Source: a virus (Duplodnaviria > Caudoviricetes). From it: a stretch of 64,000 bases of DNA. Shown one piece after another: positions 12,762 to 62,572 of the stretch. Location of the stretch: IMG/VR virus record IMGVR_UViG_3300021959_007005. One strand, written 5' to 3'. Made by a program: the position numbers and the translations under genes. Below the pieces are notes generated by a model, which was not told the DNA's origin, made no database searches, and saw only the letters and a list, made by a program, of their open reading frames with translations. The number at the start of each line of letters is the position of its first letter. The stretch's first letter is position 1.

Positions 12762-12799
12762 TTATTTTCCCTTACATATTAATATTTATTTAATAAAGA

Positions 12800-12830
12800 T
12801 TGACATCGTTATATACTACTGTTATAAATA
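12800..12830 (+). promoter_or_regulatory. ssrA promoter (sigma70 consensus whose -10 also matches T4-late TATAAATA)
   Basis: TTGACA-N17-TATAAA(TA). Confidence 0.75.
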
Positions 12831-12834
12831 ATAT

Positions 12835-12897
12835 TGTAAACGTTGAAGCAACGTGAACGCATACTGGACCGCGGGGCAGTACCGCGCATCTCCACCA
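12835..12897 (+). ncRNA. ssrA: tmRNA acceptor piece (permuted two-piece ssrA)
   Basis: T-arm CGCGG-GGCAGTA-CCGCG then CATCTCC-A-CCA; 5' end approximate. Confidence 0.92.
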
Positions 12898-12911
12898 TAA
12901 GGACATTGAGA

Positions 12912-13100
12912 ATGGAAATTATCTGGCACATACTATTAACAGTTTGTTCTGGCACAACCTGCTTAGAACAAGATGTACAACAGTTTGAAACTAAAGCACA
13001 GTGTAAAACTATGCTTGTAGAATATACAGAAATGCCAGCGGACGGACATTGGGATACAGTTGAATATATCTGTAAACCTTTAGATTCAGTGTCTTTATGA
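12912..13100 (+). CDS. 62-aa Cys-containing protein inside the tmRNA intervening segment
   Basis: AAGGA RBS directly after CCA; MEIIWHILLTVCSGTTC...C...ICKPLDSVSL; TGA ends 1 nt before the coding piece. Confidence 0.75.
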   Translation: MEIIWHILLTVCSGTTCLEQDVQQFETKAQCKTMLVEYTEMPADGHWDTVEYICKPLDSVSL

Positions 13101-13101
13101 T

Positions 13102-13268
13102 GGGGATGAAATAGGATCGACAGGTGTGGTAGTGAAGTGGAGTTTACCGGATGACTGCGTTATTGGTCAACATTTCTAAATGCAAACGCAAATAGAGCGC
13201 CAGAAATGGCATTAGCAGCCTAAGGGTATGTGGGGGCGGGTACTGCCTAGCAACAGAAGTGCCACTCT
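13102..13268 (+). ncRNA. ssrA: tmRNA coding piece (permuted two-piece ssrA), tag ANANRAPEMALAA at 13182-13223
   Basis: GGGGATGAAATAGGATCGAC pairs with CATCTCC with G3:U70; TAAAT-GCA resume; 3' GCAACAGAA motif; 3' end approximate. Confidence 0.93.
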
Positions 13269-13285
13269 AATGTAAAGGACATCTA

Positions 13286-14071
13286 ATGACAGAGAAATAT
13301 AAAATACAAATCGTTGCACCTGGTCGAACTGGCAGTACTTTTCTTCATCAAGTTTTAAGTGATGAATTGGTGGGCGATAGTGTATATCGTTTCAATGAGC
13401 CAATTGGAGTACCTTATGACGATCTACTATTAGGAGGAGAACTTTTCGACGAAGAGGATTTATCTGATGCACAATATGTTATTGAAAATTCAAAATTTTT
13501 CGATTCGTTAAACAGTGACAATGTAGTGGTAAAGAATGTAGTAGTGCCACTAAAAGAAATGAAAGACTCCCATCCTATTTTATGGGAAGAATACATAAAA
13601 CATAATTGGAATACTGTAATACTATATAGACAAGATCTTTTTTCTACAATAATTAGTTACTGTATAGCAGAATATAAAAATAAAAATGATGATGACATTA
13701 ATCATTTTCAAACTCATACTGCTAAACTAAGCAACCAACTTACATTTGATCAAGAATACTTTACTGAAAAGTTTATGTTCTATGTAGAACAATATAAGAT
13801 TCTTGTAGAGTTTATGAATGAATTTAAAAACCACATTGTATTAGCATATGAAGACTTTTCAGATGATCATGTTGATATTAAACGTAAAGTGCATGGGTTT
13901 GCAGATTTAAATAACGAAGATCAAGTACAACATGTTTTGACAAAAAATATTGATAATAAAGATATGATAGAGAACTATGAAGAATTACATACTTTATTTT
14001 TAACTTTAGTAGAAGAATTTATTGTTGATGGAATTGAAATATCTGAAGATGGAATGTTAAGTATAGACTAG
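13286..14071 (+). CDS. Sulfotransferase-like (Stf0-type) P-loop protein
   Basis: APGRTGSTFL, LYRQDLFSTIISY, LAYEDF. Confidence 0.5.
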   Translation: MTEKYKIQIVAPGRTGSTFLHQVLSDELVGDSVYRFNEPIGVPYDDLLLGGELFDEEDLSDAQYVIENSKFFDSLNSDNVVVKNVVVPLKEMKDSHPILWEEYIKHNWNTVILYRQDLFSTIISYCIAEYKNKNDDDINHFQTHTAKLSNQLTFDQEYFTEKFMFYVEQYKILVEFMNEFKNHIVLAYEDFSDDHVDIKRKVHGFADLNNEDQVQHVLTKNIDNKDMIENYEELHTLFLTLVEEFIVDGIEISEDGMLSID

Positions 14072-54788: not shown

Positions 54789-57032
54789 TTGTCTAATGAA
54801 GATAAGATTGAAAAAATCGTAAACAAGACATTTATGTTGAGTAAAGATTACCGTCACCACTATGTAACTATTGAGCATTTACTAGCTATTATTCTTGATT
54901 TAGATGAAGTGAAGGATATTGTTTCTGATTTTAGTGTAGATCCATCTGATATAAGCAGAGAAGTATACGATCATTTAGCAGATTCAGTTGATAGTTATCC
55001 AGATGCTACAGAACAAGAACCCAAAAAGACTGTCATGTTGGAGCGAGTATTCCATAGAGCATTTACGCAAGCATTGTTCAATGGCCGTAATAACTTAGAC
55101 CCCAGAGATTTACTGATTAGTATTTTATCAGAGCAACAAACGCCAAGTGCTTTTATTTTACAAAAATACGGTATTGACAGAGATGCAGTTAGTAACTATC
55201 TTCAGGATATTAATCGTATTCGAGAGCAAAATATTAATCAAGATTCATCACCAACAATTACAAAAGCTGACAAGATATTACGTAAATTTTGTGAAAATTT
55301 AAATGAATCAGCAGCTAGTGGTAAAATAGATGCTATTGTTGGTAGAGAAGAAGAATTAGCCGAAACAGTACAGACCCTTGCTCGTCGTAAAAAGAATAAT
55401 GTTGTACTTGTTGGTGATAGTGGTGTTGGCAAAACTGCCATTGCCGAAGGACTTGCTTATTTAATCAATGAAGGAAGTGTTCCTGATCTAATACAAGGAC
55501 ATATTGTTTATAGTTTAGATTTAAGTGCTTTATTAGCTGGTACTAAATTTAGAGGAGACTTTGAAGACCGACTTAAAGAAGTACTAGATGTATTAGAAAA
55601 AAGAGACGATGCTATTTTGTTTATTGATGAAATACATATGATTATGGGAGCAGGCAATAGTGGATCCGGTGCAATGGATGTTGCTAATATGTTAAAGCCA
55701 GCACTACAAAAAGGAAAGTTGCGTTGTCTTGGTAGTACAACCTATGATGAATACCGCCAACATTTTGAAAAAGATAAGGCACTTGTACGTAGATTTCACA
55801 AAGTAGACGTACCTGAGCCAAGTGTGGCAGATGCAAAGCGTATAATTAATAACAGCATATATCCATATGAAGCACACCACGAGATTGCATTTACTAAGAA
55901 CGCACTTGATGGTGCAGTAGACTTAACTGCACAATATTGGCATAATAAATTTCTTCCAGATAAAGCATTTGATGTAATTGATAGTGCGGCGGCTCGTCAA
56001 CGGTTACTTCCCAAAGACGATCGTAAGAGTATTATTGACTTAGATGAAATTAGATTTGAGGTTGCTAAACTAACAAGGATACCAATTGACCAATTAGTAT
56101 TAACCAAAGATAGTGAGTACAAAAAAGAAAAGCCTGTAGATATTGAAAAGCAATTAAATCTTAAAGTGTTTGGCCAATCAGAAGCTATCACTAAGTTAGC
56201 TGATAGTATTTACATTGCGAAAGCAGGTCTTAAAGCAGAAGATAAACCAATTGGTAGTTACTTGTTTAGTGGACCAACGGGTGTTGGTAAAACAGAAACA
56301 GCAAAGCAGCTCAGTAATACCATGGGAATGGAATTATTACGTTTTGATATGAGTGAATATCAAGAAAGACATACAGTATCAAAACTTATCGGCAGTCCTC
56401 CAGGCTACGTTGGATTTAGTGAAGGCGGTTCAGGTAGTGGTCTGTTAATTAATAAACTAGAAGAAAATCCAAATAGTATTTTACTATTAGATGAGATTGA
56501 AAAGGCTCATCCAGACGTTAGTAACGTATTGTTACAACTAATGGATAATGGAATGGTTACATCAAGTGACGGCAAAACAGTCAGTGCTAGAAATTGTATT
56601 ATTATACTTACAAGTAATTTAGGTGCTGCTGATAGCGAAAAGAACTTAATTGGCTTTGGTGCTGGAAAAAATGAGTCAGCAGCAGGTGAGGCAGTTAAAA
56701 GTTTCTTTAGTCCAGAGTTTAGAAATAGACTTGATGCAATTGTGCAATTTAAAAAATTAGACAGAACATTGATGAAAAATGTTACAGTTAAGTTTATTAC
56801 TGAACTAGAAGCAATGTTAACTCCACGGGAGATTGTACTATTATATGATGATAAAGTAATTGAATGGCTAACTGACAATGGATTCAGTGAAACAATGGGC
56901 GCAAGGCCGATGGCACGTGTCATTAATCAACAAATCAAAAAACCGCTTGCTAAAGAATTATTATTTGGTAGTGACATTAAAACAGTAACACTGGAAATAT
57001 TAGATGGCAGTATTAACATTACAACAAATTAA
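54789..57032 (+). CDS. clpA: ClpA-type AAA+ unfoldase
   Basis: Clp N-domain, GDSGVGKT, FIDEIH, GPTGVGKT, RFDMSEYQE, LLDEIEKAH, GARP. Confidence 0.92.
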   Translation: MSNEDKIEKIVNKTFMLSKDYRHHYVTIEHLLAIILDLDEVKDIVSDFSVDPSDISREVYDHLADSVDSYPDATEQEPKKTVMLERVFHRAFTQALFNGRNNLDPRDLLISILSEQQTPSAFILQKYGIDRDAVSNYLQDINRIREQNINQDSSPTITKADKILRKFCENLNESAASGKIDAIVGREEELAETVQTLARRKKNNVVLVGDSGVGKTAIAEGLAYLINEGSVPDLIQGHIVYSLDLSALLAGTKFRGDFEDRLKEVLDVLEKRDDAILFIDEIHMIMGAGNSGSGAMDVANMLKPALQKGKLRCLGSTTYDEYRQHFEKDKALVRRFHKVDVPEPSVADAKRIINNSIYPYEAHHEIAFTKNALDGAVDLTAQYWHNKFLPDKAFDVIDSAAARQRLLPKDDRKSIIDLDEIRFEVAKLTRIPIDQLVLTKDSEYKKEKPVDIEKQLNLKVFGQSEAITKLADSIYIAKAGLKAEDKPIGSYLFSGPTGVGKTETAKQLSNTMGMELLRFDMSEYQERHTVSKLIGSPPGYVGFSEGGSGSGLLINKLEENPNSILLLDEIEKAHPDVSNVLLQLMDNGMVTSSDGKTVSARNCIIILTSNLGAADSEKNLIGFGAGKNESAAGEAVKSFFSPEFRNRLDAIVQFKKLDRTLMKNVTVKFITELEAMLTPREIVLLYDDKVIEWLTDNGFSETMGARPMARVINQQIKKPLAKELLFGSDIKTVTLEILDGSINITTN

Positions 57033-61605: not shown

Positions 61606-61703
61606 TAAATACGTGTGTCCAATAGTACTCATGAGAGGACTTATGCTGCACCACAGCGTAGCCCATAGAACGGGCGTAGGACTTCTTTTTAAGGAGAAAA
61701 CAA
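61606..61703 (+). promoter_or_regulatory. Late promoter plus structured leader, copy 1
   Basis: Near-identical to 62084-62182, with covarying stem. Confidence 0.8.
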
Positions 61704-62075
61704 ATGGGAAGACCACTAAACAAAAGACACTTTGGCAATCCAGGTAATGATGGGTTCCAGATCAGGGTAACAGCAGACGTAGGTGCTGGCGCAAGCGCAG
61801 GTCATATTGTAAAGCAAACAGGCAGCAAGCGTTTTCTATGTGATGTAGGCGGAAGTGAAGCAGTTTGTTCATTAGGAGCAGGCGCACCAGGCGTAGGCGA
61901 AGTGAGAATTAACGTAACAGACAGTGCAGCAGGTACTTATGATGTTACTAAAATCTCAGGTAGAACATGTACAGTTAAACCACAGACAGGTACACAATTT
62001 GCTCAAGGCGATAAAGTTCCTTGGAACAAAATTGGCGCCGTGGTTAATGAAAGTGTTGTAATCGACTTTCTATAA
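61704..62075 (+). CDS. MGRPLNKR-family late protein, paralogue 1
   Basis: Shares KQ.GSKRFL and V.KISGRTCTV...GTQFA with paralogue 2. Confidence 0.75.
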   Translation: MGRPLNKRHFGNPGNDGFQIRVTADVGAGASAGHIVKQTGSKRFLCDVGGSEAVCSLGAGAPGVGEVRINVTDSAAGTYDVTKISGRTCTVKPQTGTQFAQGDKVPWNKIGAVVNESVVIDFL

Positions 62076-62083
62076 TTGCAGCA

Positions 62084-62182
62084 TAAATACGTATGTCCAA
62101 TAGTACTCATGAGAGGACTTATGCTGTACCCACAGCGTAGCGACTAGAACTCGCATAGGACTTCTTTTTAAGGAGAAAACAA
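62084..62182 (+). promoter_or_regulatory. Late promoter plus structured leader, copy 2
   Basis: See copy 1. Confidence 0.8.
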
Positions 62183-62572
62183 ATGGGAAGACCACTAAAC
62201 AAGAGAAATTTCGGCGCACGAGCAGACGCTGGTGCCCAAATTGCACCAGCCGCATACACTACCCAACTATTTGGTAATGCTCATATAATCAAGCAAAAAG
62301 GTAGTAAGCGTTTTCTAGTAGCAACTGCGCTGTCTGGGGTCGATCAACCAGACCAAATTTGCAAACTAGTAACGGATGTACCAGCTGCTACTGGTGAAAT
62401 GGTTATCAAATGTAAAGATAGTGTGAACGGAACTTACTTTGTAAGTAAAATTTCTGGTAGAACTTGCACAGTAGTAGCAGATTCAGGAACACAGTTTGCA
62501 TCAAAAACAAAAGTACAGTGGAACCTCAGTGCCGCTGAAGCTGGCGTATCAGTTATACTAGACCTAGCATAA
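62183..62572 (+). CDS. MGRPLNKR-family late protein, paralogue 2
   Basis: See paralogue 1. Confidence 0.75.
   Translation: MGRPLNKRNFGARADAGAQIAPAAYTTQLFGNAHIIKQKGSKRFLVATALSGVDQPDQICKLVTDVPAATGEMVIKCKDSVNGTYFVSKISGRTCTVVADSGTQFASKTKVQWNLSAAEAGVSVILDLA

Follow-up and report, generated by a model that had tools for sequence, protein, structure and literature searches.

Can the segment that is cut out of a two-piece transfer-messenger RNA (tmRNA) precursor be a working gene, and if so, how do ribosomes and tRNA-type processing share the same few nucleotides? This question is raised by the ssrA locus of a large marine tailed phage (Caudoviricetes; IMG/VR record IMGVR_UViG_3300021959_007005), of which a stretch of 64,000 nt, here called the window, was analyzed. 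The precursors of stable RNAs usually pass for non-coding, and the spacer in a two-piece tmRNA gene for disposable, whereas the spacer of this ssrA gene is a selected protein gene. The best explanation of the results is that the phage encodes a functional two-piece tmRNA whose excised spacer is a working protein-coding cistron, an open reading frame (ORF) of 62 codons designated ORF62. It is very probable, in our judgment, that a translated gene lies nested within a working tmRNA gene.

The tmRNA gene and the gene in its spacer

The original prediction, made from the sequence, was a circularly permuted, two-piece tmRNA gene, and this identification is well supported. ARAGORN called a single permuted tmRNA at 12805-13314 with the tag ANANRAPEMALAA. 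Two permuted-tmRNA models of Rfam matched over their full length and far above their curated gathering thresholds: tmRNA_permuted (RF04321) with 109.8 bits against a threshold of 47 (12836-13223, model positions 1-213 of 213), and alpha_tmRNA (RF01849) with 106.4 bits against 50 (12785-13268, model positions 1-355 of 355). Both models handle approximately 200 nt within ssrA as an insert. According to the ARAGORN flag and the coordinates, the order is permuted, the piece with the T arm and CCA being encoded upstream of the coding piece. The acceptor piece ends with CATCTCC-A-CCA at 12897 and the coding piece starts with GGGGATG at 13102; the two strands form a 7-bp acceptor stem that includes G3:U70, the alanine identity pair. 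The tag frame has a resume codon and a hydrophobic C-terminal end before its TAA. All of these boundaries hold as first proposed (Table 1).

The intervening segment was also claimed to contain a complete gene, which was confirmed: it has an AAGGA motif, a 62-codon frame, and a TGA one base before the first nucleotide of the coding piece (G1). The CCA is followed by TAAGGACATTGAGA and then by the ATG at 12912, and the TGA at 13098-13100 is separated from G1 by a single T (13101). An ORF of this length appeared in only 0.4% of spacer shuffles. ORF62 belongs to a family of at least 73 protein clusters (90% identity) from marine metagenomes and viromes, almost all of which are exactly 62 aa long. 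Alignment of 33 representatives revealed 19 invariant columns, including four cysteines and a P-x-D-G-x-W-D motif; the protein studied here carries the family residues W5, C12, G14, C17, C31, P42, D44, G45, W47, D48 and P56.

A total of 99 ORF62-bearing loci were collected, 35 of which are nested in ssrA as in this phage. In all 35 the spacer is 202-205 nt long, the ATG lies 12-15 nt after the CCA, and the TGA ends 1 nt before G1. No indel occurs among the 24 distinct nucleotide versions of nested ORF62, whose variable sites are distributed 30/16/51 over the three codon positions. The median ratio of nonsynonymous to synonymous substitution rates (dN/dS) is 0.18 at a median synonymous rate (dS) of 0.88 (Nei-Gojobori, 271 pairs), the same as that of the non-nested copies (0.15). 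The expectation of purifying selection is thus borne out, with no frameshifts or indels in the 24 nested versions. Judged by these substitution patterns, ORF62 is shown to be a real gene that evolves under purifying selection while nested. The frame is taken to start at the ATG because the CCA-to-ATG distance varies between 12 and 15 nt. Some gene callers extend the frame to an upstream TTG (85 aa, P0001); this candidate was rejected, since its upstream part is not frame-conserved and the CCA-ATG distance varies by 1-3 nt.

The tmRNA also appears to stay functional around the gene. Six fully paired acceptor-stem variants are found among the 35 nested loci: GGGGATG/CATCTCC, GGGGGCG/CGCCTCC, GGGGTCG/CGACTCC, GGGGCTG/CAGCTCC, GGGGCCG/CGGCTCC and GGGCCTG/CAGGTCC. 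In 28 aligned sequences, changes at stem positions 4, 5 and 6 are matched in the partner strand 200 nt upstream and G3:U70 is invariant; of the five pairs in the T arm, three have undergone compensatory changes. In the alignment of 28 precursors, 98.4% of the cells in the T arm, the acceptor stem and the clamp helix described below are paired, compared with 33-46% when the partner columns are slid. Double-sided changes occur at eight pairs, and the covariation score was reached by none of 500 shuffles. These pairing and covariation statistics indicate that the two halves, 200 nt apart, co-evolve. Tag frames of the relatives are intact and end in ...LAA, and their full-length Rfam scores equal those of relatives without an ORF in the spacer. 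Since compensatory acceptor-stem variants occur across ORF62, gene and tmRNA are evidently both kept.

Two loci are irregular. The nested locus L124 (2470-2700) has one G4/A69 mismatch (GGGGTCG against CGAATCC), where near-identical relatives have CGACTCC. L123 (2691-2815) is 95% identical to this phage through the acceptor piece and ORF62; its coding piece breaks off approximately 30 nt after G1 and is followed by unrelated NnrS- and NnrU-like genes. Either this assembly is chimeric or L123 is a natural recombinant whose ssrA is truncated.

Table 1. Positions of the features of the ssrA-ORF62 locus in the window
Feature	Position	Strand	Basis or remark
ssrA promoter	12800..12830	+	TTGACA 12800-12805, 17-nt spacer, TATAAATA 12823-12830; read directly
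tmRNA acceptor piece (3' piece)	12836..12897	+	Rfam alignments, ARAGORN
T-arm stem	12870-12874 with 12882-12886	+	Inside acceptor piece
3' acceptor strand CATCTCC	12887-12893; discriminator A 12894; encoded CCA 12895-12897	+	
Intervening segment, 204 nt, not in mature tmRNA	12898..13101	+	Insert in both Rfam models
Shine-Dalgarno-like AAGGA, 8 nt before ATG	12899..12903	+	Also in clamp trailer strand
ORF62, 62-codon gene	12912..13100	+	Viral small-protein family, selection, AlphaFold
Clamp-helix leader strand (last ORF62 codons, TGA, U-1)	13085..13101	+	Pair tables, folds
tmRNA coding piece (5' piece), with 3' tail	13102..13268	+	ARAGORN, Rfam
5' acceptor strand GGGGATG	13102-13108	+	
Tag reading frame, ANANRAPEMALAA + TAA	13182-13223	+	ARAGORN and sequence

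Transcription of the locus

The promoter that precedes ssrA ends some 6 nt short of the position where the Rfam match to the acceptor piece begins. In 14 of the 24 distinct nested loci, TTGAC[A/T/G], 17 nt and TATAAATA follow one another about 67 nt ahead of the CCA end; TATAAATA by itself is present in 19. The consensus promoter scan demands T at -10 position 6 and hence did not list this promoter; it listed weak sigma70-like matches elsewhere in the region. The -10 element TATAAATA is identical to the T4 late-promoter consensus, in addition to forming part of a sigma70-type -35/-10 pair. Because of this match, both early and late expression are plausible. With the genes upstream of ssrA encoded on the other strand and no more than 14 nt between CCA and ATG, the natural candidate for the ORF62 message is the ssrA precursor.

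Metatranscriptome contigs identical to this DNA span the CCA end and G1 (X16, 12876-13228; X6, 12883-13158), and in a DNase-treated library the sole contig within 2.2 kb covers 12870-13043. Contigs across both junctions are compatible with precursor RNA. Two contig joints that skip ORF62 (90% likeness) most likely come from related tmRNAs with no ORF in the spacer.

The helix that joins the spacer ends

The two ends of the spacer can pair with each other. The pairing involves leader positions -1 and -3 to -17 on one side and A73, C75, A76 and the trailer (12898-12910) on the other, interrupted by one invariant A-2/C74 mismatch. Together with the acceptor stem, this clamp makes a helix of approximately 23 bp, which contains the Shine-Dalgarno (SD) motif, the stretch up to the ATG, the last codons (Ser-Val/Met-Ser-Leu) and the stop. 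AAGGA is thus part of one clamp strand, and therefore an SD motif and a structural element at once. The clamp is present in the minimum-energy fold predicted for the precursor (-134.6 kcal/mol, z = -4.2), and in that of the excised spacer it closes the molecule as a 12-bp panhandle (z = -3.4).

The original prediction drew attention to the distance between stop and G1. This distance is constant (1 nt in 35/35 nested loci) but is not tuned to ORF62, since it belongs to a general TGAT leader. Of 116 permuted ssrA loci of phages collected by a pattern search, 87 have TGAT directly followed by GGGG, among them loci with ORF-less spacers of 25-100 nt, and the trailer/leader helix is likewise general among these loci. 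The 1-nt gap is inherited from the structural element, because UGAU lies opposite ACCA. The trailer behaves differently. Of 49 ORF-filled spacers, 18 have an SD-like motif (AGGA, GGAG or GAGG) in the first 12 nt after the CCA, as against none of 52 others (Fisher p = 3e-7); ORF-less spacers start with TAAACA, TAAGCA or TAGATA.

Other ORFs in ssrA spacers

Spacer length ranges from 3 to 247 nt across the 116 phage loci. All spacers of at least 177 nt, and most of at least 140 nt, are filled by one ORF, which begins close to the CCA with an SD motif and ATG and terminates between -12 and +13 relative to G1; stops other than that of ORF62 were seen at -7, -12 and +13. These ORFs fall into unrelated families, which include a basic 55-aa protein, a hydrophobic family of 38-44 aa, and others of 45-47 aa and 69-73 aa. 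In the 45-47-aa family the stop is the TAG within GAAATAGG, a sequence of the coding piece. Selection is apparent here as well, with pairwise dN/dS of 0.03-0.31 in the 38-aa family, against 0.85 and 2.6 in two control frames, and of 0-0.10 in the 45-aa family.

Spacers of 159-160 nt (L010, L052, L088, L090, L100, L115, L116, L121) contain two overlapping frames, a 23-codon acidic ORF right after AAGGAG and a conserved 38-codon hydrophobic ORF; selection was computed for the 38-codon frame only, which ends at the TGA before G1. The ssrA spacer of phage Melnitz (142 nt; L001:2801-2964) has an ORF of 54-58 codons that runs 42 nt into the coding piece. Its homologue in L023 (442-642) differs by an in-frame 8-codon insertion, suggesting that the Melnitz-type spacer ORF is coding.

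Among the bona fide alphaproteobacterial genomes sampled, spacers are 10-74 nt long and hold no such ORF. A scan of genome contigs returned mostly one-piece tmRNAs of unrelated phyla; approximately 34 loci were permuted, two of them with long spacers of 260 and 266 nt that contain ORFs of 76 and 75 codons (L232 and L267, respectively). L232, from a metagenome-assembled genome (MAG) labelled Methanobacteriota, and L267, from a MAG labelled Rickettsiales, have phage-type leaders, low G+C and doubtful bins; these contigs are probably phage DNA binned into cellular MAGs.

ORF62 in other genomic contexts

ORF62 is not confined to ssrA spacers. In about 29 loci, Melnitz included, it is directly upstream of ssrA. 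The TGA of such copies lies within the -35 TTGACA of the TTGACA-17-TATAAATA promoter (L001:2484-2720 of Melnitz, L098, L128-L130, L192-L195, L202, L215-L218). In about nine loci, ORF62 begins 13-16 nt after a tRNA-Thr, with CCA followed by AAGGA, and usually runs directly into a tRNA-Leu, its stop abutting or overlapping the tRNA 5' end. In L133:2409-2772, L134, L172, L212 and L216, tRNA-Leu starts with the G of the TAG stop; RNase P would therefore cut inside the stop and leave a message with no complete stop codon. On the tRNA-Thr side, the ORF62 homologues of L137 and L138 are arranged likewise. The remaining loci are ordinary operons. Formally, the tRNA-flanked and the ssrA-nested layouts are the same: a tRNA-like 3' end, an SD motif, an ORF and a tRNA-like 5' end. 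The ORF62 tree (186 columns) is poorly resolved, and a single origin of nesting is neither shown nor rejected (approximately unbiased test, p = 0.058).

The ORF62 protein and its phage

AlphaFold, run with the family alignment, predicts a compact beta-beta-alpha-beta fold for ORF62 (predicted local distance difference test, 88.6), with a beta-hairpin at residues 5-25, a helix at 28-40 and a strand at 49-56. ORF62 was at first taken for a small exported protein, which these data do not support: the first K/R is residue 28, and the hydrophobic N-terminus forms the core beta-hairpin of the model. Export was judged from this charge pattern and the AlphaFold model, with no dedicated signal-peptide predictor. 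ORF62 has no match in Pfam (E <= 0.01) or PHROG, and its neighbors are likewise without a family. A protein-atlas search returned only its own viral clusters and a weak DUF1482 lead (0.82). Apart from one PDB chain considered below, Foldseek searches of PDB and BFVD gave weak matches to many uncharacterized phage proteins of 55-90 aa. At a guess, ORF62 is a small early or late host-interaction protein.

The genes in the window are of phage type, including a DNA ligase, an ATP-dependent protease and a dehydrogenase PHROG. A megablast search with 20 kb of this uncultured phage against GenBank phages gave no match; the sole DNA match to a GenBank phage is that to four Melnitz isolates (Methylophilales myophage), exactly on ORF62. 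The ATP-dependent protease has 747 aa and is encoded at 54789-57032 (phrog_4871, E = 1e-249). On ORF62-bearing contigs of about 320 kb, a ClpP-family protease is encoded a few genes away (L137:210-797, L138:242-829). The proteases together with ssrA suggest a phage-borne tagging-and-degradation set. Two copies of the cis-regulatory RNA motif 'freshwater-2' of Rfam were also found in the window, at 61625-61706 (66.4 bits) and 62103-62185 (71.7 bits), just upstream of ATGs.

Translation and maturation on one precursor

How one RNA could serve both as a message and as a tmRNA precursor can be outlined as follows. A single transcript from about 12836 would be made early and late in infection. Its SD motif and ATG would emerge approximately 190 nt before their pairing partner, so that ribosomes could engage the precursor while it is still being made and translate ORF62. 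A ribosome at the TGA would occupy the leader and the 5' acceptor strand. Formation of the clamp and acceptor stem, and with it the RNase P cut at G1 and CCA trimming, would then follow translation or compete with it on every single precursor molecule. Once closed, the helix would hide the ribosome-binding site, and tRNA-type processing would free the two tmRNA pieces and the spacer. Because the clamp joins the halves whatever the length of the spacer, insertions are tolerated; the spacer may serve as a slot for small phage genes, which would gain a strong promoter and defined RNA ends.

Regulatory coupling of translation and maturation along these lines is physically plausible, and we propose it tentatively. 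A stricter form is unlikely: maturation may be gated by translation, the first ribosomes holding the clamp and acceptor helix open until closure silences the ribosome-binding site and licenses RNase P. In this form the spacer set free would carry just 1 nt beyond its stop or, in the tRNA-flanked copies, would be cut within the TAG, and so become a near-non-stop or non-stop substrate of the phage's own rescue system. If this were true, ORF62 dosage would be capped by the locus itself, or the arrangement would sense tmRNA activity, as a phage counterpart of mitochondrial tRNA punctuation.

Several observations weigh against a translated and coupled ORF62. The clamp is mostly invariant, with just two to three co-varying pairs, and its conservation is confounded because one strand is also coding. 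An SD motif buried in a predicted fold could equally mean poor translation. In other families the spacer ORFs stop anywhere from -12 to +13 of G1, and one at +42; a precise stop position is no general requirement. The RNA-library data are assembled contigs that show neither translation nor RNA ends; neighboring genes are at similar depth, and DNA carry-over is possible. As to the protein, the best PDB match is weak (8g9s_A, a 70-aa chain from a type I-C CRISPR-Cas3 study; E = 0.19, TM 0.68 with Foldseek).

It is also possible that ORF62 is simply a hitch-hiker in a permissive spacer: it would borrow the ssrA promoter and be translated from the precursor, while maturation would be indifferent to it and the overlaps would have no regulatory meaning. 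The copies of ORF62 upstream of ssrA, between tRNAs and in ordinary operons agree with this account, as do the ORF-less spacers that share the TGAT leader and the closing helix, and the varied stop distances of the other families. It is harder to reconcile with the trailer, which is SD-like only where an ORF is present and keeps its pairing by means of G:U, and with the fact that the ORF invariably takes up the whole spacer except for a few nucleotides next to either processing site. Moreover, the initiation region up to the ATG pairs with the last codons of the ORF, and some interference is hard to avoid. This simpler account is nevertheless a serious candidate, though less probable than not.

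A separate mRNA for ORF62 is decidedly improbable. In this case an unrecognized promoter in or just before the acceptor piece, or read-through, would supply the message in place of the precursor. T4-type late promoters need just a short TATAAATA-like box that is easily missed, and weak sigma70-like matches do exist in the region. Against this stand the 14-nt gap between CCA and ATG and the upstream genes on the other strand; in addition, one strong promoter precedes the acceptor piece and is conserved in most nested loci, and any transcript from it holds both the acceptor piece and ORF62. Still less credible is an ORF62 that is not translated at this locus, being the relic of a rearrangement or a frame kept open by RNA-structure constraints. 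The predicted folds do bury the SD motif and start, and the 23S spacer ORF of Coxiella has been reported as not expressed and decaying (PMC4990558), but ORF62 combines a dS of approximately 0.9 with a dN/dS of 0.18, shows no indel and a third-position bias of variation, and is indistinguishable from the non-nested copies. That the tmRNA is a pseudogene broken by the insertion is the least credible account, for which L124 with its mismatch and L123 with its lost coding piece might be quoted, in the face of six compensatory stem variants, an invariant G3:U70, intact ...LAA tags and Rfam scores like those of ORF-less relatives.

A working cistron within a functional tmRNA gene has several implications. 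It points to an overlooked class of small phage genes, masked as 'tmRNA' by annotation pipelines, and many marine phages use the ssrA spacer for unrelated small genes. ORF62 itself seems to move between equivalent tRNA-bounded slots, one within ssrA and the other between tRNA-Thr and tRNA-Leu, which hints that large phages use mRNA ends defined by RNase P. The locus is also a naturally occurring case where translating ribosomes and RNase P/tRNA-type processing would meet on the same few nucleotides.

Comparison with known systems

Phage two-piece tmRNA is already published and is not new. The Melnitz paper describes a two-piece ssrA of the alphaproteobacterial type and counts 53 two-piece tmRNAs in sequenced phages, mostly marine (PMC9004378). 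Among marine myophages, two-piece tmRNA is known from Melnitz and the pelagimyophages (PMC9004378, citing Keiler et al. 2000). The gene studied here resembles the alphaproteobacterial and myophage tmRNAs in gene order, G3:U70 stem, tag type and a promoter directly upstream. In Melnitz the ORF62 homologue (59% identity) is next to ssrA, upstream of the acceptor piece, whereas here it is between the pieces. A glutamine riboswitch directly follows the Melnitz tmRNA, as published (Rfam, 52.8 bits, L001:3102-3150); no glutamine riboswitch was found after the tmRNA of this phage, where the next gene starts 18 nt past the tmRNA 3' end. In the text of the Melnitz paper the word "intervening" does not occur and spacer ORFs are not discussed (PMC9004378). 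A full-text literature search found no paper that catalogues ORF-bearing tmRNA spacers, and the novelty of the original prediction stands in this respect. As far as the searchable literature goes, the nested selected gene, its recurrence with unrelated genes, and the alternative tRNA-bounded slots are undescribed.

The closest published analogue is the ORF in the intervening sequence (IVS) of the Coxiella burnetii 23S rRNA, which encodes an S23p protein, has no functional ribosome-binding site, is reported not to be made in vivo and is decaying (PMC4990558). In both systems an ORF lies in a stem-closed spacer that is cut from a stable-RNA precursor with no re-ligation, and a fragmented but functional RNA is left. 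The Coxiella IVS is excised from rRNA by RNase III, whereas the phage spacer would be excised by tRNA-type processing. Unlike the Coxiella ORF, ORF62 has an SD motif and is under purifying selection. It does not belong to S23p, having no Pfam match at E <= 0.01 and a tmRNA as its host RNA.

Large insertions in the spacers of permuted tmRNA genes are known from the 2025 tmRNA database, which reports a tRNA-Ala gene and a repetitive element at this site and mentions no protein-coding insert (PMC11915505). Just 79 phage sequences were included in that database (PMC11915505). The spacer of such genes thus tolerates large insertions, and the ORF-filled spacers of phages bear on the question of how long spacers evolve and are tolerated in permuted tmRNA genes.

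A further parallel is tRNA punctuation, in which mitochondrial mRNAs are flanked by tRNAs; the thrU-tufB transcript of E. coli is a co-transcript of tRNA and mRNA. As in such transcripts, the ends of the ORF62 message would be set by RNase P and tRNA 3' processing. Unlike in tRNA punctuation, the tRNA halves that flank ORF62 belong to a single molecule, and the message lies between strands that have to pair.

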